Assembly (NCBI GenBank): GCA_948543815.1
Contig: CAOVHW010000001.1
Location: 138,413 to 202,412, forward strand
Source: an uncultured Eubacteriales bacterium
GTDB lineage: Bacteria > Bacillota > Clostridia > Lachnospirales > CAMVHY01
Length of the DNA: 64,000 nt
Direction: 5' to 3'
This document shows positions 654 to 62,104 of this stretch, in pieces. Both the position numbers and the translations under genes were made by a program. Numbering within the stretch: position 1 is the stretch's first letter; every line of letters starts with the position of its first letter. The notes below the pieces were generated by a model that worked only from the letters and a program-made list of their open reading frames with translations, was not told the origin of the DNA and ran no database searches.

Positions 654-1859
654 ATGGCGAACGAAAATTTTAATTTAGAAAATCTTTTAAATGGTTTTTC
701 TAACCAAAATTTTGAAAATTACCAAGAGTTTGTTGATGAATCAGATGAATCAGATGAATCAACTCAAGATGAAGACTTCCAAGAATTTTTTAGTGAATTA
801 GACGAACCAACTTAAGATAAAATAACTAATATTTTAGAGAATTTACCGAATATAGAAGGTTATATCGAAAGGTTTAAAAATAGTTTAACAGAATGTTATA
901 GATTGATGCCGTTTAATATGTATAGTAATGGGGTATTTTCTGAGGATATTGATATAATTATTGCTGGAGAGCTTATTTTGATAGAGTTACGAAATAGAGG
1001 ATATATTTCTCCTGAGGAGTCTAATAGATTAAGTCAAATTATAAACGAATTGTTAAATAATGATCTATCTAATACAAGAAATAATAATGCAAAAGAATTT
1101 ATTGATTTTTTGAAAGAAAATTTTAATAATGATTCGCTAATAAAAGATAATTCTTTTCTTTTTGAGGTAGGAGAAAAGCTCTTAGAAAAAAATTCTTCAG
1201 AAATTTTAGAAGATAGGCTTAATTATATTTTAAAAATTTTAAAAGAAAGCCAACCCAACCAATATAATCAAGTTTTAAAAATTCTAAATGATGCAAAATT
1301 AAAAGAGAGATATGAAGAATTTAGAAATGCTTTAATAGAAATTTATGAAAGAGATGAAATAAACGGAACTGAAATTTTTGCTAAAGTTCTTGATGGGATT
1401 ACTGATAGAGGTGTAGAACAAATCGAAGATATTTTGTCCCTTATTGATGAAGGTGAAAAAGGAAAGCATGAAGAACAGGAAACTTTTATATCAGATGATG
1501 AAAATCCAAATGAATTAAATGAAGATTCTGATAGTGATTTTTTTCAAATATTAATGGCTCGAGAAGATATTACCGTAAGCGATATTAAGAGATTAAAGCA
1601 AGTTATTGTGAAATTAAGCCCTGACGAAGTAGTAAAATTGGTTGATGATTTAAAAAAAAATGTTGAAAGTAACGCGCCAAGGAAAAAAATCATTTCACTT
1701 ATTAAAACTGCAGAAAATTATTTAGAAGGGAAAGCACCAAATAGGCCACAGCAACCGATTAAAAAAAGACGTGAGCCTAAAAAGCCACAAATATTTTATA
1801 AAATAACTAACAAATCAAATAAGTTGAAAGCGCAGCGTAAAGGGAAAATGGTCAAGTAA
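654..1859 (+). pseudogene. Modular-repeat orphan protein, paralog 1, split by a single in-frame TAA (813-815)
   Basis: Track ORFs 633-815 and 903-1859 are in the same frame with only one stop between them. The read-through text ...FFSELDEPT*DKITNILENLP... parallels paralog 2 ...FFSKLDEPTQEKIIYILENL.... The SD AAGGAG favours a GTG 651 / ATG 654 start over ATG 633. Confidence 0.6.
735..761 (+). repeat. 3 x 9-bp perfect tandem repeat GATGAATCA (encodes DES-DES-DES)
   Basis: Read directly: gatgaatca gatgaatca gatgaatca, in frame within paralog 1. Confidence 0.9.
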
Positions 1860-1940
1860 TTTAAAACATAAAAAGATAGCTAAAAGTATGCGATAAAAAT
1901 AATTTTTAAAATCAAAATTTATACTAATTTGTCATAAATT

Positions 1941-2039
1941 TATATCGGGTTGAAAATTTTCGGATTAATTTCGATAGTTTTTAGCTTAATTATTATTACA
2001 GAGAAAATTATTTTGGAGGATTATTCAAAGAAAAATTAA
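1941..2039 (+). pseudogene. Relic copy of the last 32 codons of the YtvI-like gene (duplication scar)
   Basis: Translates in frame as YIGLKIFGLISIVFSLIIITEKIILEDYSKKN*, against the genuine 3' end YIGLKIFGLLGVIFGPIMIITGKIILEDYSKKN* at 468-569. No upstream coding body. Confidence 0.75.
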
Positions 2040-2063
2040 ATTGAGAATAAAAACGTAACATAC

Positions 2064-2092
2064 TTGACATAATATTAAAACATTGTTACAAT
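2064..2092 (+). promoter_or_regulatory. Sigma-A type promoter, leader cassette copy 2
   Basis: TTGACA 2064-2069, 17-nt spacer, TACAAT 2087-2092, followed by AAGGAGATGATTGTGATGG exactly as in copy 1. Confidence 0.6.
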
Positions 2093-2122
2093 AATGATAT
2101 TATGTACAAGGAGATGATTGTG

Positions 2123-4159
2123 ATGGCCAAGGGAAATATTAATTTAGCAAATCGTTTGAATGATTTTAAGGATCGTATACCAAATTTTGAAAAATTTAAC
2201 GAGATTTTTAATGAATTAGATGTGGACAGAAAAACTGATATAATTAATATTTTAGAAAATTTACCTAATAGGAGATATGTAGGGAAAATTACGGATGAGA
2301 TAATGCAATATTGTAGAACAGCAGATGAAACTGAAGATGGTTTCTTTACCGTAGACATAAAACTGGATATAGTTATTGAGAGAGAAATTTTATTACAGAA
2401 GTTAAATTCAAAAGGTATTGCAGAAATAGACTGCAACCAATTGAGGCAATATATAAATTATTTGGAGAATAAAGAGGCATTTAAAGTTATTAACAATTTA
2501 AGTAAAAGTTTAGATAATAGCCAATTAAGTAATAAAGTTTTTTCTACAATCGAGAAATTAAAAAAAAATATTGAAATGGTACATATAAATCGTTTAAATA
2601 ATTTTAAGGATCGCATACCAAATTTTGAAATATTCCGAAAGTTTTTTAGTAAATTAGATGAACCAACTCAAGAAAAAATAATTTATATTTTAGAGAATTT
2701 GCATAATAATAAATCTGCAAGTGAAATTACGGATAAGATAATGCAATATTGTAGAATAGTAAATGAATGTGACGATGATTTCTTTACTTTTTTAAACATA
2801 AAACACTATATAGATTTTGATATAGAGATTTTGTTAAATAAACTAATTTCAAGAGGTATTGAAAAAACGGACTGTTACCAATTGAGGTACTATATGAAGT
2901 GTTTGAATAATAAAGAGGCAAATAGAGTTATTGAAAATTTAAACAAAAATTTAAATAATAAACGATTAAGCAATATAGTTTCTTCTACAATCAAGGAACT
3001 TGAAAAAAATATTATAAAGCGTTTAAATAATTTTAAGAATCGCATACCAAATTTTGAAGAATTTAAAGAGATTTTTAATGGATTAGATGTGAAAAGAAAA
3101 AGTAATATAATTAATATTTTAGAATGTTTGTGTGGTAGGGGATATGTAAGTAAAATTGCGGATGAGATAATGCAAAATTGTAGAAAAGCAGATAAAGATG
3201 GTTCCTTTACTATAGACCCAAATCTGGATATAGTTATTGATAGAGAGGTTTTGTTAAATGAAATATTTTTTAAAGGTGTTATTAATAAAAAATACTCCAA
3301 CCTATTGATAAAATATATGAATGCTTTGGTTTTGACTAATAAAGGGCTAAATAAAGCTATTAAAAAATTAAACGAAGATTTATATAATGACAAATTACGC
3401 TATACAATTTTTTCTATAATCCAAAAAAGCCAAAAATCAGTTATAATAACTCTTTTAAACAATTTTAAGGATGACATACCAGATTTTGAAAAAGTTAAAG
3501 ATATTGTTGATAAATTAAATATATCAACCAAAGAAAGATTAATTGAAATTTTAATTCAGCCACTTAAACAAAGATATTTCAAAAATTTTGTAACTGAATT
3601 AATAAAGTTGTATGAAGAAAGCAACATGGAAAGATTTTATATAGTTATTGACAGAGAAATTTTGTTACAACGATTACGTGATCGAGAAGACTTTACACAC
3701 GATGAGCGTAAAAGGTTTAGTCAAGTTATAAATACACTAAGTAATGAGTCTGCAAAATTATTTATTGAAGATATAAAAAGTATTTTAAGCAGTAGAACAC
3801 AAAAAGAAGTAATTCTTGAAAGAATTAATGATGGGGAAAATAAGATAGAAGAAGAAAAAGATAATTTTTGTAGAGAATTAAAGAAGAAAGCTGATATTAC
3901 CGTAAGCGATACTAAACAAATAAGGAAAGTTATAGATGGTTTACCTTATGATGAATGGGACAAATCTTGTAATGCTTTGAGAGAGAATGCATTAAATGGT
4001 AAGTCAAGAAGAGAAATCCCTTCGCTTATTAATGTAAAAGAGACAAACAATTCAAATAATCCACTTCAGAAAGTTGACCAAGCAAATAAGTCAAAAATGC
4101 CGCATAAAAAGAAAATTGCTCAAATGATTTCAAAACGCTCAAAGGAAGATATACTATAA
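2123..4159 (+). CDS. Modular-repeat orphan protein, paralog 2 (four ~144-aa modules plus a C-terminal tail)
   Basis: Long ORF. The module start LN(D/N)FK(D/N)RIPNFE recurs at nt 2153, 2591, 3020 and 3452. The SD supports ATG 2123 (track start 2102 lies in the leader). No signal peptide or TM segment. Confidence 0.8.
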   Translation: MAKGNINLANRLNDFKDRIPNFEKFNEIFNELDVDRKTDIINILENLPNRRYVGKITDEIMQYCRTADETEDGFFTVDIKLDIVIEREILLQKLNSKGIAEIDCNQLRQYINYLENKEAFKVINNLSKSLDNSQLSNKVFSTIEKLKKNIEMVHINRLNNFKDRIPNFEIFRKFFSKLDEPTQEKIIYILENLHNNKSASEITDKIMQYCRIVNECDDDFFTFLNIKHYIDFDIEILLNKLISRGIEKTDCYQLRYYMKCLNNKEANRVIENLNKNLNNKRLSNIVSSTIKELEKNIIKRLNNFKNRIPNFEEFKEIFNGLDVKRKSNIINILECLCGRGYVSKIADEIMQNCRKADKDGSFTIDPNLDIVIDREVLLNEIFFKGVINKKYSNLLIKYMNALVLTNKGLNKAIKKLNEDLYNDKLRYTIFSIIQKSQKSVIITLLNNFKDDIPDFEKVKDIVDKLNISTKERLIEILIQPLKQRYFKNFVTELIKLYEESNMERFYIVIDREILLQRLRDREDFTHDERKRFSQVINTLSNESAKLFIEDIKSILSSRTQKEVILERINDGENKIEEEKDNFCRELKKKADITVSDTKQIRKVIDGLPYDEWDKSCNALRENALNGKSRREIPSLINVKETNNSNNPLQKVDQANKSKMPHKKKIAQMISKRSKEDIL

Positions 4160-4171
4160 AAATAATTTTCA

Positions 4172-4199
4172 AAATCAAATCTTTGAATTTGATTTTTTT
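4172..4199 (+). terminator. Intrinsic terminator after paralog 2
   Basis: AAATCAAAT-CTTTGA-ATTTGATTT hairpin followed by a T-run. Nearly the same hairpin follows paralog 3. Confidence 0.65.
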
Positions 4200-4231
4200 G
4201 TAAAAATTAAGGAGATAAAAAAGTAACAAAC

Positions 4232-4260
4232 TTGATATAATATTAAAATGATGTTACAAT
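4232..4260 (+). promoter_or_regulatory. Sigma-A type promoter, leader cassette copy 3
   Basis: TTGATA 4232-4237, 17-nt spacer, TACAAT 4255-4260, then GAGGAGATGATTATTATGG. Confidence 0.55.
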
Positions 4261-4290
4261 AATAATATTAAATTTGAGGAGATGATTATT

Positions 4291-4884
4291 ATGGAAACTG
4301 GACAACATTTAATTGTAGATTGGCAAAACAAATTGAAATATATTTTGACTTCAGCGGGTTATGAAAAATATTGGCCAGAAATAAATGATATTTTACAAAG
4401 TTTAGATTCACAAAGGAAAGAAAAATTAATGAATTTTTTATCGGTTAGTGAAGGTGTTATAGGAGGATTTAAATCAGCAGATTTATCAACTGTGTTAAAT
4501 GTTTTTAAAAAATTAAATTTTAATTATAGAATAGGATTAATTGATGTTTTAAACAATGGGGATAATGGTAAACAATTAAATCTTTACGAACAAGGAGACT
4601 TAATTAATGTTTTAGATAGATTAGATGAAACTGACAAATGCAATTTGATTAATGTTTTATATCAATCAAGTTTAGATAAAAAAAAGGAATACATTAGTCA
4701 ATTAAATAGGATTGGAAATGAACAGTCAAAATTAAAAGAATCAATTAATTCTATTAATGTGGGTTTTTATAAAACACAACAGGAATCTAAGGAGATGCAA
4801 CGACCAATTCAACTGGTAAATCAAAATAATTCTCAAAGTAAAAATGAAAATTATAAAAAGCAGCAGCCGCAAACTAATAGGTAA
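4291..4884 (+). CDS. Orphan protein, paralog 3 (short, divergent member of the array)
   Basis: Shares the leader cassette and LD...K..LIN(V/I)L-type segments (ILQSLDSQRKEKLMNFL, VLDRLDETDKCNLINVL). N/Q-rich tail. Confidence 0.7.
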   Translation: METGQHLIVDWQNKLKYILTSAGYEKYWPEINDILQSLDSQRKEKLMNFLSVSEGVIGGFKSADLSTVLNVFKKLNFNYRIGLIDVLNNGDNGKQLNLYEQGDLINVLDRLDETDKCNLINVLYQSSLDKKKEYISQLNRIGNEQSKLKESINSINVGFYKTQQESKEMQRPIQLVNQNNSQSKNENYKKQQPQTNR

Positions 4885-4911
4885 TCTCTACAGCAAACTT
4901 AAAAAAATTTG

Positions 4912-4939
4912 AAATCAAATCTTCGGATTTGATTTTTTT
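4912..4939 (+). terminator. Intrinsic terminator after paralog 3
   Basis: AAATCAAATC-TTCG-GATTTGATTT hairpin plus a T-run. Confidence 0.65.
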
Positions 4940-4998
4940 GTTGTAAAAATGCGGATGATTTTGATAATCTAATAATAAAATTATTTTTTGAGGTTAAG

Positions 4999-5454
4999 AT
5001 GAATAACAAAGGTTTTACTTTGATTGAATTAATAATTTCGTTGGCAATTAGTGTAATAATTTTGAGCTTAGGTTCAATTTCTTTTAATGTTGTTGAGCGC
5101 CATCGAATTGTTCAATCCGCAAATATTTTACGTTCAAATTTAAGATATTGTCAGAAAAATGCTGTCGATGAAAAAAGGAAATATGTTTTAACTTTTGATT
5201 CAAATAAAAATTTATATTATGTGCGGCGTGCGGATGATAGTGGTTTACTGCGCAAAGTTTCGCAAGTTAATTTGCCATTGGGGATAAATATTTTTACGAA
5301 TGCCAAAGAAAATTCAGTAGCTTATACTTTGCGTGGAACAACTGGAAGTGCGTGTACAATAAATTTGCGCGGTCAAAAATATTTTTTGAAAATGACAGTT
5401 AATGTTGGCTGCGGCCGCGTAAAAATTAATCCTGTTCAAAAACTTTATTCATAA
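4999..5454 (+). CDS. Prepilin-type N-terminal cleavage/methylation domain protein (minor pseudopilin-like)
   Basis: N-terminus MNNKGFTLIELIISLAISVIILSL matches the G/FTLIE class III signal followed by a hydrophobic helix. Confidence 0.65.
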   Translation: MNNKGFTLIELIISLAISVIILSLGSISFNVVERHRIVQSANILRSNLRYCQKNAVDEKRKYVLTFDSNKNLYYVRRADDSGLLRKVSQVNLPLGINIFTNAKENSVAYTLRGTTGSACTINLRGQKYFLKMTVNVGCGRVKINPVQKLYS

Positions 5455-8103: not shown

Positions 8104-9205
8104 TTGTTTGAACTCGATGAAATCTACACACAAATGAATGAGTATAAAAAAAAATTAGATGATATGGGGCGATCTCTTTGACATCGATACGCTTAAATTA
8201 AAATTGCAAAATCTTGAAACTGAATTATGTCAGCCGGAAATTTGGAGTGATATAAAAAAGTCGCAAGTGATTACAAAACAAAAAAAACAGCTCGAAATTA
8301 AAGTTTTAAATTTTGAATCACTTTATAATCAATGTCAAGATATTTTTGTATTTATTGAATTGGCCGAACAGGAAAATGATTTGAGTCTTTTGTCCGAAAT
8401 TAAATCCGCTAAAAATAAATTTGTCAGTGAATTTGAATCTTTTCGTATCTCAAATTTGTTGAGCGGTGAATATGATTTCAATAATGCAATTGTTTCTTTA
8501 CATTCCGGTGCGGGTGGAACTGAAGCATGTGATTGGGTTGATATGCTCTTTCGAATGTATGGCAAGTGGTGCGACAAAAATAATTTTTCATTTAAAGTTA
8601 TGGATTATTTGCCGGGCGAGGAAGCTGGTATTAAATCAGTGACGTTTGAGGTTAAAGGCGACAATGCGTATGGATATTTGAAAAGTGAGCGTGGTGTGCA
8701 TCGACTTATCCGAATTTCACCATTTGATGCGTCGGGGCGTCGGCATACATCATTTGCTTCATGCGAAGTTATGCCGGAAATAAATGATGAAATTGAAATA
8801 AAAATTGCGGAAGATGAGATACGTGTTGATACTTACCGTTCGAGTGGTGCGGGTGGTCAGCATGTAAATACAACTGATTCCGCAATTCGTATTACACATT
8901 TGCCAACCGGAATTGTTGTTCAGTGTCAAAATGAGCGCTCGCAAATACAAAATCGTGAATTCGCAATGAATATGCTTAGGGCAAAATTATTGTCAATGAA
9001 AATTGATGAACAGCGCGCAAAATTGGAAGGCATACGTGGCCAGCAAAAAGAAATTGCGTGGGGAAGTCAAATTCGTACTTACGTATTTCATCCGTATAAT
9101 TTAGTCAAAGACCATCGTACAAATGTTGAAACGGGTAACGTTCGCGCGGTTATGGACGGCGATATCAATTTGTTTATAAATGCTTATTTAACTTTATTTG
9201 CTTAA
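8104..9205 (+). CDS. prfB: Peptide chain release factor 2, requires a programmed +1 frameshift at 8176-8182
   Basis: Frame 0 (TTG 8104, RBS AAGAGG 8090-8095) reads MFELDEIYTQMNEYKKKLDDMGRSL then TGA. The +1 frame continues DIDTLKLKLQ... with the SPF motif (RISPFDASGRRHTSFA) and the GGQ motif (SGAGGQHVNTTDSA). Confidence 0.93.
8164..8182 (+). other. RF2 autoregulatory +1 frameshift site (CTT TGA C with an upstream SD-like GGGG)
   Basis: atg ggg cga tct CTT TGA C. Classic slippery Leu codon plus a UGA stop in poor context. Confidence 0.9.
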
Positions 9206-9220
9206 AATAAAAAAGAAAAA

Positions 9221-9340
9221 CCGTTCTTTTTTTTGAAAAAAAAAGAACCAAAAAAAACTTTAATATAAAAATCTTTACGCATTCGCGTAAAGATTTTTTG
9301 TTAAAGTTCTTTTGTTACTTTTCTTACAAGAAAAGTAAGG
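9221..9340. repeat. Composite three-hairpin intergenic element, copy A (order H1-H2-H3)
   Basis: H1 GTTCTTTTTTTTGAAAAAAAAAGAAC 9223-9248. H2 ATCTTTACGC-ATTC-GCGTAAAGAT 9271-9294. Linker TTGTTAAAGTTCTT. H3 TTACTTTTCTT-ACAA-GAAAAGTAA 9315-9338. Lies between convergent prfB and glgB. Confidence 0.8.
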
Positions 9341-9355
9341 TTTTAAAATTTATTT

Positions 9356-15956: not shown

Positions 15957-15960
15957 ATTC

Positions 15961-16096
15961 TTTTTTTTCTTGAAAGAAAAGAAATAAAAGAACTTTAACA
16001 AAAGAACTTCGCGGTACGCGAAATTTTTTATAAAGTTTTTTCATGAAACAGCTTCGAAGAAGCTGATTATGCGTTCTTTTTTTATAAAAAAAACGG
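15961..16096. repeat. Composite intergenic element, copy B (inverted order, extra hairpin)
   Basis: TTTCTTGAAAGAAA hairpin, linker AAAAGAACTTTAACAAAAG, central TTCGCG-GTA-CGCGAA hairpin, extra CAGCTTC-GAA-GAAGCTG hairpin, then H1-type CGTTCTTTTTTTATAAAAAAAACG. Lies between convergent tcdA and sigG. Confidence 0.7.
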
Positions 16097-16112
16097 TTTT
16101 AAAGTTATTTAA

Positions 16113-24240: not shown

Positions 24241-24258
24241 TAAATTTACTAAATAAAA

Positions 24259-24390
24259 CCTTACTTTTCTTGAAAGAAAAGTAACCAAAAGAACTTTAAC
24301 AAAAAAATCTTTGCGTGCAATACGCAAAGATTTTTTTATGAAGTTTCTTATTTTGTTTTACTTTTTTCTTTTCAAAGAAAAAAGTAAAGG
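24259..24390. repeat. Composite intergenic element, copy C (inverted order; ~73 nt near-identical to the reverse complement of copy E)
   Basis: CCTTACTTTTCTTGAAAGAAAAGTAACCAAAAGAACTTTAACAAAAAAATCTTTGCGTGCAATACGCAAAGAT, then TTTATGAAGTTTCTT and a second H3-like hairpin TTTACTTTTTTCTTTTCAAAGAAAAAAGTAAA. Confidence 0.85.
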
Positions 24391-24423
24391 TCTTAAATTA
24401 TAGGGGAAAGATTTTTTTTGGCA

Positions 24424-32553: not shown

Positions 32554-32555
32554 TA

Positions 32556-32612
32556 AAAAAGAACTTTATCAAAAAAATTGCGAGTGCAGTTTTTTTAGTT
32601 AAAGTTCTTTTT
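32556..32612. repeat. Intergenic element, copy D (minimal long-arm hairpin; bidirectional terminator)
   Basis: AAAAAGAACTTTATCAAAAAAA ... TTTTTTAGTTAAAGTTCTTTTT. The arms carry the family core AAGAACTTTA-CAAAA / TTTT-GTTAAAGTTCTT. Confidence 0.7.
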
Positions 32613-32631
32613 ACATTTATGTAAAATTTAT

Positions 32632-36003: not shown

Positions 36004-36052
36004 AAAAAAAATAGGCAGGCGATATACTCACCTGCCTACCTAATTATTTTTT
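36004..36052. terminator. Bidirectional intrinsic terminator
   Basis: TAGGCAGG-11 nt-CCTGCCTA flanked by an A-run and a T-run, between convergent genes. Confidence 0.75.
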
Positions 36053-36290
36053 AATAACCTGAAACATCAAAAGTTGTTGTGTCATTTTTGTAAAATGTAA
36101 TTGACTCAATCGCACTTAAATTTCCAACTGATGTTTCTATTGCATTTGCTGTTAAAATATTTCTTGCTGCCGTATTGATACGTGTAACGTTTTCTTGGAC
36201 GTCTGCTTTAAAGTCAAATGCATTTGGTATTGTTAAACTAAATAGTTCGTTATCAGTAGTTCTATAAACAATTTTGAAATAAGGATTCAT
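36051..36290 (-). CDS. DUF2922-like small protein
   Basis: 79 aa with its own SD AAAGGAGG. The pattern ...FSLTIPNA..D....NV...A.NIL..NA... resembles DUF2922. Confidence 0.55.
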   Translation of the reverse strand: MNPYFKIVYRTTDNELFSLTIPNAFDFKADVQENVTRINTAARNILTANAIETSVGNLSAIESITFYKNDTTTFDVSGY

Positions 36291-36302
36291 GTTAACCTCC
36301 TT

Positions 36303-36491
36303 TTACATTATAAATTCATATTTAACAGATTTAATAATTTCTGAAGGCGCAGAAACTTGATATGTCTTCATCATATCTGCAAAATTATATATTGTTTCAT
36401 CTGTCGCCGCATTATTTATATTACTATTTGAATAGGATTGGTCTTCAAATTTTAATGTAAGCTTCGTATCTACTAAATTTAATTCAGCCAT
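36303..36491 (-). CDS. DUF1659-like small protein
   Basis: 62 aa, SD AAGGAGG. LTLKFEDQSYSNSNINNAATDETIYNFADMM..YQ resembles DUF1659. Confidence 0.5.
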   Translation of the reverse strand: MAELNLVDTKLTLKFEDQSYSNSNINNAATDETIYNFADMMKTYQVSAPSEIIKSVKYEFIM

Positions 36492-36504
36492 TATTTAACC
36501 TCCT

Positions 36505-36729
36505 TTAATTTATAGTGACATCAATAATTTGAGGTTCGATATATTTTACATATTTTTTCGCAATAGGTTTAGTACCTGAAGACGTTAAAATTATATTAGA
36601 AGTAATAATAAAATCCATATCTTCAGCAAATTGGTCAATATCATAGTAAGCTTTTGCATTAGGGATTTTTACACTAAGATTTCTCCCAAGGTCATTCATA
36701 AAAACAAATTCATAGTAATTTTTATTCAT
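36505..36729 (-). CDS. DUF2922-like small protein
   Basis: 74 aa, SD AAAGGAGG. GRNLSVKIPNAK......FAEDMDFIITSNIILTSSG. Confidence 0.55.
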   Translation of the reverse strand: MNKNYYEFVFMNDLGRNLSVKIPNAKAYYDIDQFAEDMDFIITSNIILTSSGTKPIAKKYVKYIEPQIIDVTIN

Positions 36730-36743
36730 AACTAATCCTCCTT

Positions 36744-36947
36744 TTATACATTAGTTAATTGTGAGTCAACTATCTTATAAATTTTCTCAGCGCCATATTT
36801 TTGAACGGAAATAAATGCTTGAGCCGTAGCTAAAATATTATCGTTAGTAATACCGCTATTTTTCAAGTTAGAGAAAGTATAAGTTCCATTTTTATCAGTA
36901 TATTTTATTTGAAATTTTGTAGCTTTAATAGTACTAGAAACCGCCAT
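36744..36947 (-). CDS. DUF1659-like small protein
   Basis: 67 aa, SD AAGGAGG. FSNLKNSGITNDNILATAQAFISVQ...IYKIVDSQL. Confidence 0.55.
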   Translation of the reverse strand: MAVSSTIKATKFQIKYTDKNGTYTFSNLKNSGITNDNILATAQAFISVQKYGAEKIYKIVDSQLTNV

Positions 36948-41538: not shown

Positions 41539-41699
41539 TGATAGCTACCTCCACAAATTTTGTTCTCAGTATAGCATTATGCAAAATATGAATTCAAGAT
41601 TACAACTATAAAAAAAATCTTGCAGAAAATATTTCATTCGTGATATAATTTTATTTGTGTGCAAAAAAATTGTGTGTGAAAAAAATTAGGAGGATTATA

Positions 41700-42053
41700 A
41701 TGCAAGCAATAATAAAACAAATTGAGAGTGAGCAGTTAAAACCAAATATCAAAACTTTTAACGTTGGTGATACTGTAAAAGTTCACGCAAAAATTATTGA
41801 GGGTACGAAAGAACGTATCCAAGTTTTTGAGGGAACCGTTATCCGTTTCCAAAATGGTGGCTTGAACGAAGTCTTTACCGTTCGTAAAATCTCTTCAGGT
41901 ATTGGCGTTGAAAAAACTTGGCCGCTTCATTCTCCTAAAATTGTTAAAATTGATGTCGTACGTCGTGGAATAGTTCGCCGTGCAAAACTTTTTTACTTAC
42001 GCAATCGTGTTGGTAAAGCTGCAAAAGTTAAAGAAGCTATTAATAAAAAATAA
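41700..42053 (+). CDS. rplS: 50S ribosomal protein L19
   Basis: [46 protein letters not shown] before ATG 41700. Confidence 0.96.
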
Positions 42054-42075
42054 AAAAAGACTTTAAAAAACAAAA

Positions 42076-42195
42076 TCGTTCTTTTTTTATAAAAAAAGAA
42101 CCAAAAAAATTTTATAAAAAAATCTTTGCGTATTGTACGCAAAGATTTTTTTTGTTAAAGTTCTTTTGGTTACTTTTCTTTCAAGAAAAGTAAGG
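42076..42195. repeat. Composite three-hairpin intergenic element, copy E (order H1-H2-H3)
   Basis: H1 GTTCTTTTTTTATAAAAAAAGAAC 42078-42101. H2 ATCTTTGCGTA-TTG-TACGCAAAGAT 42122-42146. Linker TTGTTAAAGTTCTT. H3 TTACTTTTCTTTCAAGAAAAGTAA 42170-42193. Confidence 0.85.
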
Positions 42196-42197
42196 TT

Positions 42198-43151
42198 TTA
42201 ACTTAATATATGAACTTTTATTTGGCGGCGTCCAAATTTTTTTGCATCATACAAACTTTCATAAAACAAATCAATTTTATTTCCTTTAATTGCGCCGCCG
42301 GTATCGAGTGCTGTCGCATAGCCATAACCTTCGATGAATAATTTACTGCCGAGTGGAATAACTTTTGGGTCAACAGCAACGACACCACGCCGAGCTTTTG
42401 CACCGGTTGCTGTTATGCCGTAACCTTTATCGCCGGGTCTTTTGCCAGTACTTTCGAAACCGGCGGTATATGCACTGGCGTTCATTATCAAAACATTTTT
42501 ACAAGTTCCTCTAGTAATTATTTTTTCGATTGGCTTTTTTATTATTGTTTCATTTTTAGTACGTGAAATTTCATCGTTACCGCTAAAAATTATTTCTTCT
42601 GTAATTAATTTTTCACCGTTGATACCATTTTGTACAATTTGTTCAACATTTTCCAATAATTTATCGGAATAAATAATTTTAGTTTCGAACGGAATTATTT
42701 CAGTTTTTTCAATTAATTCGGTACGCTGTGAATAAAATTTTAATTCGTGGCAATTTCGTAATTTAAAATCATTATTTTGTGCGCATGTAAATTCTTTATC
42801 AAATTCTTTTTGCAAAACTTTTAGGAAATCGCTGACGGTATCATTAAACTTGACATTAAAAATTTTTTCTTTATCGTCAACGAGAACTTTTAAGATAAAA
42901 GGGCGTTCGATTTCGATATTCATTCCATTGAAGATTTGGTCATTCATTTTTTTATTTACGAAATCATTTTTAGAGATGAAAATATTATTTTGCGTAAAGA
43001 ATTCTTTAACGGTTTCGGAGTCAGTTGAAAAATTTGTAATAATTCCGTTATCGATGACAGAGATATTTTTATAGTTCAAAGCTTCGGCTTTACTGCTGAA
43101 TAAAAAGATGAGAAGTAGCATGCAAAATAGCAAAAAAAATTTTTTAAACAT
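42198..43151 (-). CDS. Secreted DUF348-G5-3D domain protein (YabE-like cell-wall-binding/lytic-transglycosylase-like)
   Basis: Signal peptide. G5-like segment (IIPFETKIIYSDKL...GINGEK...). C-terminal 3D domain (VAVDPKVIPLGSKLFIEGYGYATALDTGGAIKGNKIDLF). Confidence 0.8.
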   Translation of the reverse strand: MFKKFFLLFCMLLLIFLFSSKAEALNYKNISVIDNGIITNFSTDSETVKEFFTQNNIFISKNDFVNKKMNDQIFNGMNIEIERPFILKVLVDDKEKIFNVKFNDTVSDFLKVLQKEFDKEFTCAQNNDFKLRNCHELKFYSQRTELIEKTEIIPFETKIIYSDKLLENVEQIVQNGINGEKLITEEIIFSGNDEISRTKNETIIKKPIEKIITRGTCKNVLIMNASAYTAGFESTGKRPGDKGYGITATGAKARRGVVAVDPKVIPLGSKLFIEGYGYATALDTGGAIKGNKIDLFYESLYDAKKFGRRQIKVHILS

Positions 43152-54304: not shown

Positions 54305-54352
54305 CTGTTCTTTTTTTGAAAAAAAAGAACCAAAAAAACTTTAGCAAAAATA
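54305..54352. repeat. Intergenic element, copy F (H1 plus left linker only), followed by two GC-rich hairpins (54355-54400)
   Basis: GTTCTTTTTTTGAAAAAAAAGAACCAAAAAAACTTTAGCAAAAA matches the left half of copy A. Then CAAGGGA-TGAA-ATCCCTTG and TTGGG-TAGAG-CCCAA. Confidence 0.65.
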
Positions 54353-54406
54353 AATGGGTCAAGGGATGAAATCCCTTGCGGGTTTGGGTAGAGCCCAAGA
54401 GAAAAA

Positions 54407-62069: not shown

Positions 62070-62104
62070 AAAAAAAACTTTGCACATTCTGCAAAGTTTT
62101 TTTT
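62070..62104. terminator. Bidirectional intrinsic terminator
   Basis: ACTTTGCA-CATTC-TGCAAAGT flanked by an A-run and a T-run, between convergent genes. Confidence 0.75.

Follow-up and report, generated by a model that had tools for sequence, protein, structure and literature searches.

Six intergenic sites in an uncultured Clostridia genome are probably copies of a dispersed inverted-repeat element with a terminator-like central hairpin

Introduction

SPRITE is an A/T-rich Firmicute repeat of ~100 nt in which a long duplex is followed by a U-rich tract, and it is located within 200 nt of CDS ends with its strongest enrichment between convergent genes (PMC3049150). Neither a target-site duplication nor an empty site has been established for SPRITE and a mobilizing enzyme is not reported, while co-option as a terminator has been suggested (PMC3049150). 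The repeat forms one long hairpin whose ends are minimal (AAAA/TTTT) and has 30 copies, in S. pneumoniae and S. mitis only. BOX elements of S. pneumoniae (boxA-boxB-boxC) are also intergenic and over-represented between convergent genes (PMC3049150); target-site duplications have been reported for them and mobilization by an IS has been suggested (PMC3184786). BOX modules, which are blocks of 45–60 nt, always follow the order A-B(n)-C and do not resemble terminators.

The REP/BIME/REPIN systems of Enterobacteria and Pseudomonas occupy gene 3' ends and the spaces between convergent genes, with hundreds of copies per genome. REPs have effects on mRNA stability and are recombination hotspots (PMC3184786, PMC5581495). 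They are G+C-rich, have a conserved GTAG (CTAC) at the foot of the palindrome and are accompanied by a single-copy RAYT gene between REPs. Another group consists of MITEs such as RUP and Correia/NEMIS; Correia elements have terminator activity and protein-binding sites too.

Clostridia and Firmicutes are unmentioned in the bacterial repeat reviews searched, and a literature search found no publication with the core sequences of the element described here or with such a repeat family in Clostridia. The family is previously undescribed, while its kind, dispersed palindromic intergenic repeats with a bidirectional terminator, is already known. Judged by analogy, its closest counterparts are SPRITE in function and genomic behaviour, BOX in modular build, and REP/BIME/REPIN in having inverted palindromic units at the ends of genes.

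Results

Architecture of the element and its six copies

The window, meaning the whole 64 kb stretch of DNA analysed, is chromosomal, has a G+C content of ~30 % and comes from an uncultured spore-forming member of the Clostridia. It encodes SigG, MecA, RecU, SecA, RF2, GlgB, L19 and other housekeeping proteins. The window was an exact match to CAOPUI010000001.1 (MAG GCA_948506575.1) over the 21.6 kb and 3.8 kb compared, and the GTDB representative of the same species, CANEHT01, had 96 % identity to it across the 8 kb of orthologous sequence compared.

A preliminary description of this DNA had listed six intergenic sites with a shared modular architecture, and the described motifs are present in all six. 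The element has two inverted ends around a common centre. Each end consists of a perfect A/T-rich hairpin and an A-rich box (AAAAGAACTTTAAC), and the centre is a hairpin, H2, with an A-tract on one side and a T-tract on the other. One end has an exact box and the other a degenerate, AAAAAACTTTATAA-like one, while the end hairpins have a conserved upper stem and loop (CTTTTCTT-GAA-AGAAAAG) above a variable lower stem. Three systematic mismatches separate the arms, with one box exact and the other having its own consensus, indicating that the element is asymmetric and not a decayed perfect palindrome. In the canonical order, TAA(A/G)ACC is followed by outer hairpin X (TTACTTTTCTT-gaa-AGAAAAGTAA), cc, the box AAAAGAACTTTAACAAAA, H2 between its A-tract and T-tract, the degenerate arm TTTTTTATAAAGTTT(T/C)TT, a second outer hairpin that is either Y (GTTCTTTTTTT-ata-AAAAAAGAAC) or Y' (TTTTACTTTTTTCTTT-tc-AAAGAAAAAAGTAAA), and finally GGT(C/T)TTA. 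The hairpins first described as separate units H1 and H3 do exist, and are the two outer hairpins of this one asymmetric element. An optional extra hairpin, Z (CATGAAACAGCTTCgaaGAAGCTGATTATG), can be inserted on either side between an outer hairpin and its box. The heptamer GTTCTTT occurs three to four times per element.

Copies are non-coding, all intergenic in the window and present at a density of ~one per 10 kb (six in 64 kb), with sizes of 70–145 nt in the window and ~480 nt in one metagenome contig (L155), and with inverted ends made of TAA(A/G)ACC, hairpin and box. The list of six copies was right, with the correction that A and E are oriented opposite to B and C; overall, the canonical orientation is plus for three copies and minus for three. 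A replication-linked orientation was rejected as GC skew is positive throughout the window, yet the copies are evenly divided between strands.

Copy A (9216–9345, minus strand) is a complete element scoring 89.3 bits with R1, the covariance model described below. In plus-strand order it comprises AAAACC to 9222, Y (9223–9248), the degenerate box (9249–9270), H2 (9271–9294), a T-tract with the perfect-box complement (9295–9314), X (9315–9338) and GGTTTT (9339–9344), and it lies between the stop codons of prfB (9205) and glgB (9356). Folding of this copy gave dG values of -48.7/-49.4 and z-scores of -8.5/-9.1 for the two strands. Copy E (42072–42200, minus strand; 93.8 bits) is also complete, with Y at 42078–42101, the degenerate box at 42102–42121, the H2 core at 42122–42146, the perfect-box complement at 42147–42168, X at 42170–42193 and GGTTTTA at 42194–42200; the flanking stops are those of rplS (42053) and of a G5/3D-domain gene (42198). 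Copy C (24254–24395, plus strand; 100.6 bits) consists of AAAACC to 24260, X (24261–24284), the perfect box (24285–24304), the H2 core (24307–24331), the degenerate arm (24332–24349), Y' (24356–24388) and GGTCTTA (24389–24395), between the stops of mecA (24240) and of a gene for a 112-aa product (24424).

Copy B (15957–16101, plus strand; 78.2 bits) lies between the stops of a tcdA-like gene (15956) and sigG (16113) and contains an X-like hairpin (15958–15983), a perfect box (15986–16003), an H2 core of the GAACTTCGCG subtype (16008–16022), the degenerate arm (16024–16041), Y (16073–16094) and GGTTTTA (16095–16101). Its site had been correctly located, and module Z at 16042–16071, which this copy carries in addition, had not been separated out. 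Copy D (32554–32626, plus strand; 33 bits, E about 0.0015) is a short version between the stops of a 1085-aa gene (32553) and a MATE gene (32632), with a box carrying one mismatch (32557–32574), a weak H2 within A7/T7 tracts (32575–32596) and an arm with one mismatch (32594–32609). The site had likewise been placed correctly, with an extent of 32556–32612 that overlooked a small outer hairpin, TTTTACAT..ATGTAAAA, at 32609–32626. Copy F (54305–54400, minus strand; 36.3 bits) is a half element located between a co-directional gene pair. It consists of Y (54307–54330) and the degenerate box (54331–54349), and is neighboured by unrelated GC hairpins at 54360–54378 and 54384–54398, which follow the stop of an ABC transporter gene (54407); on its other flank is the start of a YitT-like gene (54281).

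Motif counts, covariance model and database searches

The 16-mer AAGAACTTTAACAAAA had 18 matches in the window at ≤3 mismatches against 8.5 expected, a count that none of 100 dinucleotide shuffles reached, and its exact matches were confined to copies A, B, C and E. Similarly, TTACTTTTCTT had 15 matches against 6.9 expected (0 of 100 dinucleotide shuffles as high), with exact matches confined to copies A, C and E. The preliminary description had proposed a covariance model built from the copies. This model, R1 (93 positions, 33 pairs), was applied unfiltered to both strands of the window and returned exactly six sites, the six copies, at E<0.02, with the next best match at E=0.15. The second-best non-element score (E=0.2) was that of an ordinary terminator at 62077–62097, ACTTTGCAcattcTGCAAAGT between A8/T8, whose stem resembles the commonest H2 stem (ATCTTTGCG...); this terminator could be a stripped-down relative of the element or a coincidence.

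An exact 18-mer scan over 185,579 species genomes returned mostly chance matches, which were reused as controls. R1 had zero matches in ~85 unrelated control loci having just the 18-mer and none in 17 chance 18-mer loci from viral contigs. Across 693 kb of loci, R1 matched Clostridia MAGs only, namely every CANEHT01 locus and four other Clostridia MAGs. At least 13 further copies were present on other contigs of the same species, and copies at non-homologous sites had 75–92 % identity over about 95–175 nt.

A scan of the window against Rfam, at gathering and permissive E-value thresholds, detected just three tRNAs at gathering score, with the elements at chance level (E about 1 or higher), and a gathering scan of 18 metagenome loci gave no match on the elements. 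No blastn match was found to annotated phages, and only two plasmids had matches, to short A/T hairpins. The plasmid NC_014633.1 from Ilyobacter polytropus (Fusobacteria) has five 94 % matches of 32–34 nt to the X hairpin region (e.g. 609740–609773), which may be distantly related to the element or belong to a separate family of A/T-rich palindromes.

Compensatory changes and strand symmetry

An earlier claim that both halves of the H2 stem change together was borne out in an alignment of 23 non-orthologous copies with 38 pairs. Standard pairs accounted for 88 % of pair cells and both-side changes were detected in 21 of the 38 pairs (67 cells). None of 500 shuffles reached the observed values; since shuffles ignore kinship between copies, the stronger control is provided by slid registers, in which displacement of the partner by 1–3 columns left only 46–61 % paired. 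RNAalifold and pair counts supported the outer hairpin and the long central hairpin. The predicted fold of either strand was a junction of three hairpins that AAAACC/GGUUUU closes (z-scores -4.3 to -9.1). On the canonical strand, counts of G.U versus A.C were 8/5 for the outer hairpin, 28/23 for the arms and 7/8 for H2, with no strand asymmetry of wobble pairs in any of these three. The equal frequency of G.U and A.C indicates that pairing is kept on both strands.

Central hairpin and position relative to genes

H2 stems have predicted stabilities of -11.6 to -12.4 kcal/mol in copies A, C and E, -5.7 in copy B and -1.9 in copy D, where the stem is weak. On both strands H2 is preceded by an A-tract and has 6–8 T within the next 9 nt, an anatomy equal to that of ordinary terminators at element-free gene ends in the window, and a terminator scan flagged H2 of copy B in both directions. 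H2 has, as far as its sequence can tell, the anatomy of a bidirectional intrinsic terminator and we infer, in agreement with the preliminary description, that it terminates transcription from both adjoining genes. At the sigG site H2 is degenerate in one strain (CANEHT), indicating that the central hairpin is not always maintained.

Convergent junctions in the window were occupied by a copy in 5 of 13 cases as compared to 1 of 53 other junctions (Fisher P=7.7e-4), confirming that five of the six copies lie between convergent genes. These five are 0–31 nt from the nearest stop codon and nearly fill the space between the codons. Proximity to a stop codon, at first ascribed to every copy, therefore holds for five of six; the exception is the half element, copy F, which is 54 nt from the nearest stop and 23 nt upstream of a start codon. 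Among copies in tandem gene contexts, two were co-directional and four antisense, such that orientation relative to genes is not fixed. A promoter composed of loop TTGAAA and TTTAAC was considered and rejected by eye on the 18–19 nt spacer and poor -10 hexamer.

Variation between strains and relatives

Copy A has the same sequence in the strain at 96 % ANI, and sites D and F are invariant among the strains retrieved. Modules differ at other sites. The rplS site (copy E) has the arrangement Y-core-X in the window and in L122, while CANEHT/L121 has a swapped outer hairpin (Y'-core-X). In two further MAGs (L120/L123), the last 31 nt of rplS are duplicated in tandem together with the element, and Z has been added to the first copy. 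At the sigG site (copy B), Z is on the opposite side of the core in CANEHT/L128, and strain L126 has lost 14 nt including the box. A check for presence/absence polymorphism had been proposed. Exact-protein look-ups at five sites within the species uncovered only module-level differences, namely module swaps, a duplication and a deletion, and no clean filled/empty pair. A search for target-site duplications, also proposed, yielded none that was convincing; no consistent duplication surrounds the copies, whose ends, TAA(A/G)ACC...GGT(C/T)TTA, lie within A/T-rich flanks that could hide TA or TTAA.

Copies C and E contain contig ends from several independent assemblies, with breaks inside these copies at window position 24366 and in L003, L004, L007, L008, L123–L125 and L133–L135. 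The repeats are thus a systematic source of fragmentation in the short-read MAGs of this species.

More distant relatives were also compared. L115, whose L19 is 87 % identical, carries two copies that have diverged but keep the module order, and its rplS and G5/3D-domain genes are each followed by a plain terminator. No copy was found in relatives L117–L119 (20 kb each). The junction between the ABC transporter and YitT genes is 17 nt in relative L118 versus 125 nt in the window, a difference that corresponds to copy F and its neighbouring hairpins. In the window (41655–43151), rplS is followed by copy E and then by the convergent G5/3D-domain gene. In L115, L117, L118 and L119, ylqF is in tandem after rplS, and in L115 the G5/3D-domain gene is ~9.5 kb further along. 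This contrast in neighbours places copy E at a synteny breakpoint, which has possibly arisen from deletion or rearrangement between repeats.

Distribution in Clostridia

JGI metagenomes were scanned with a query of 31 specified bases consisting of the X upper stem and loop plus the box. The exact 31-nt A/T-rich core was detected in 18 contigs, most of which have a G+C content of 46–64 %. The lower hairpin stem varies from contig to contig and is fully compensated. In the GC-rich contigs, ordinary genes precede the hairpin, which lies 0–40 nt beyond their stop codons and is itself followed by a G+C-rich terminator-like hairpin; examples are the genes for a ClpC-like ATPase, triosephosphate isomerase, SpoVAC and a HIT protein. 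A second, Y'-type hairpin with a box-like sequence is frequently present on the other strand (L156, L162, L168). In one contig (L155) the element reaches 480 nt, its inverted ends measuring ~70 nt, and the flanks are shared by a sister locus from the same metagenome. Apparent co-orientation with the upstream gene (~14/14 in GC-rich contigs) was discarded as uninformative since most contexts are convergent and the tandem cases comprise two co-directional and four antisense copies.

Strict copies number ~one per contig in the GC-rich genomes, and the variants found across other Clostridia are specific to their lineages. Within a genome, lower stems and flanks are similar, and they differ between genomes, which is the signature of copying within genomes, and the universal hairpin-plus-box is presumably recognized by the copying machinery or by a host factor. 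An exact 31-nt core at 46–64 % GC suggests selection on sequence beyond the needs of a terminator. This conservation is poorly explained by a selfish repeat or a plain terminator and would be equally consistent with a function involving a host protein or RNA.

One Clostridia MAG (HGM12650; L086 7238–7440) has the box and an imperfect hairpin in three head-to-tail repeats with a 50-nt period. No other locus examined shares this three-fold tandem.

Discussion

The six sites probably represent copies of a dispersed DNA element that is non-coding and has two inverted-repeat ends. This is in line with the REP/BOX/MITE-like repeat suggested in the preliminary description, as copies at non-homologous sites are 75–92 % identical, convergent junctions are enriched, modules are rearranged and assemblies break at copies. 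In the mechanism we propose, H2 would stop transcription arriving from either flanking gene, and the outer hairpins, each with GGTTTT after it on the outgoing strand, would act as back-up terminators and/or protect 3' ends. Copies would spread at the DNA level, by transposition through a putative enzyme recognizing the hairpin-plus-box ends or, alternatively, by recombination and gene conversion between copies, and would survive mainly where a terminator is harmless or useful. Transposase or HUH genes were absent from the 30 window proteins checked and from the positions adjoining copies in the loci examined, the 64-kb window has no RAYT gene, and no copy pairs flanking a gene were seen in the contigs examined.

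Compared with SPRITE by description, the element similarly combines a duplex with a T-rich tract, is enriched between convergent genes and lies close to CDS ends (PMC3049150). Unlike SPRITE, it has three to four hairpin modules, ends of ~45 nt each with a hairpin, an asymmetric box pair and a distribution over several Clostridia lineages; a common origin with SPRITE is unlikely because the hosts here are Clostridia. BOX and the element both have modules that can be absent, repeated or exchanged and both have extensive predicted secondary structure, but neither a target-site duplication nor a mobilizing IS was found here. Inverted palindromic pairs, short linkers and mosaic combinations are shared with REP/BIME/REPIN, the mosaic being formed in this family by X, Y, Y' and Z hairpins variously combined around the core. 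The family differs from REPs in lacking GTAG, in having A/T-rich stems (CTTTTCTT/AAGAAAAG) and in using a terminator hairpin as its linker. Membership of the REP/RAYT class was rejected on the GTAG and G+C-rich stem features. With MITEs such as RUP and Correia/NEMIS, the element shares a length of 70–480 nt, terminal inverted repeats, a non-coding and dispersed nature and genome-specific subfamilies. Neither the target-site duplication that defines MITEs nor, in the window and the loci examined, a parent IS sharing these ends was found, and inverted ends that are perfect hairpins with co-varying lower stems would be unusual for a DDE transposase. Integron attC sites, oriT/nic sites and DNA uptake sequences were considered and rejected on copy number, housekeeping context and low density in GC-rich genomes.

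The hairpin-plus-box ends (CTTTTCTTGAAAGAAAAG, a co-varying lower stem and AAAAGAACTTTAAC) might, as a speculative extension that we consider doubtful, be recognition sites for one conserved protein. By analogy, candidates may be a domesticated HUH/tyrosine transposase, as in REP-RAYT, or an RNA- or ssDNA-binding factor. If true, the system would be a class-wide Clostridial counterpart of REPIN-RAYT that supplies host terminators.

A different explanation is that the sites carry a conserved RNA motif of gene 3' ends, in which a hairpin and AAAAGAACTTTAAC are transcribed immediately downstream of the stop codon as a target for a conserved Clostridial RNA-binding protein or nuclease, with a role in stability, processing or termination efficiency. 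The palindromic look would then arise from two units serving two convergent genes that have one common terminator, and a similar hairpin with a box-like sequence on the other strand at the opposite end fits this arrangement. We regard this explanation as unlikely, even though the core is exact from about 30 % to 64 % GC with a compensated lower stem and is located 0–40 nt after housekeeping-gene stops in GC-rich contigs. Tandem contexts split into two co-directional and four antisense copies, and co-orientation in the other contexts, which are mostly convergent, carries no information; wobble-pair counts are symmetric across strands; the within-genome likeness of lower stems and flanks fits copying and not independent maintenance; modules are shuffled among strains; and no Rfam family matched the window or the 18 metagenome loci. 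A structured 3'-UTR RNA was accordingly the least supported of the readings in the preliminary description, given that both strands fold equally, wobble is symmetric and orientation is unfixed in tandem contexts.

The sites could also be arrays of binding sites for a host protein on double-stranded or extruded DNA, kept for chromosome organization and not for transcription, with a nucleoid-associated protein, an XRE/SinR-type regulator or a topoisomerase as the bound factor. There is a precedent in E. coli, where IHF and gyrase act at BIMEs. Conservation of box and upper stem in sequence, beyond pairing, is consistent with protein binding, as are the symmetric structure on both strands and the three to four occurrences per element of GTTCTTT, which resembles the Bacillus subtilis SinR half-site GTTCTYT and is a lead only. 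Compensation in the lower stem is unexpected for a protein reading duplex DNA, the density of ~one copy per 10 kb here contrasts with ~one strict copy per GC-rich contig, and no candidate protein was identified, so that binding-site arrays appear highly improbable. Ordinary independent intrinsic terminators, alike merely through the A/T-rich genome, are refuted even though H2 is built like other terminators of the window and A/T-rich hairpins are common at 30 % GC, because motif counts exceed all shuffle controls, R1 separates the six sites from other window terminators (next E=0.15), identity at non-homologous sites is 75–92 % over about 95–175 nt, and the same core is present in GC-rich contigs.

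As a dispersed two-ended DNA element, the family would show, in a group other than streptococci and proteobacteria, a repeat bringing ready-made bidirectional terminators to the ends of convergent genes. It marks strain-level rearrangement hotspots and breaks short-read MAG assemblies, and annotation of terminators, small RNAs and synteny in uncultured gut Clostridia should mask or model it. The lead that most deserves follow-up is the conservation of the A/T-rich hairpin-plus-box across varied base composition, and this conserved core is a concrete bait for an enzyme or host factor that recognizes it.

Other features of the window

Three further regions of the window were noted. The prfB gene for RF2 contains a classic programmed +1 frameshift site (8105–8185), in which the TTG 8105 frame enters CTT TGA C at 8175–8181, with GGGGCGATCT just before, and then passes to the +1 frame; prfB was listed as an ORF only from 8159 because the long ORF continues in the +1 frame. 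A region of 25–28 % G+C at 903–5454 has three ORFs (318, 685 and 200 aa) without a Pfam match and, after them, a pseudopilin-like protein that has a methylation motif at its N-terminus, and may be a type IV pilus or competence-type locus. Finally, a plain bidirectional terminator at 36012–36038 has downstream of it four small tandem minus-strand genes of 62–79 aa (36051–36947), encoding DUF1659, DUF2922, DUF1659 and one product without a match.
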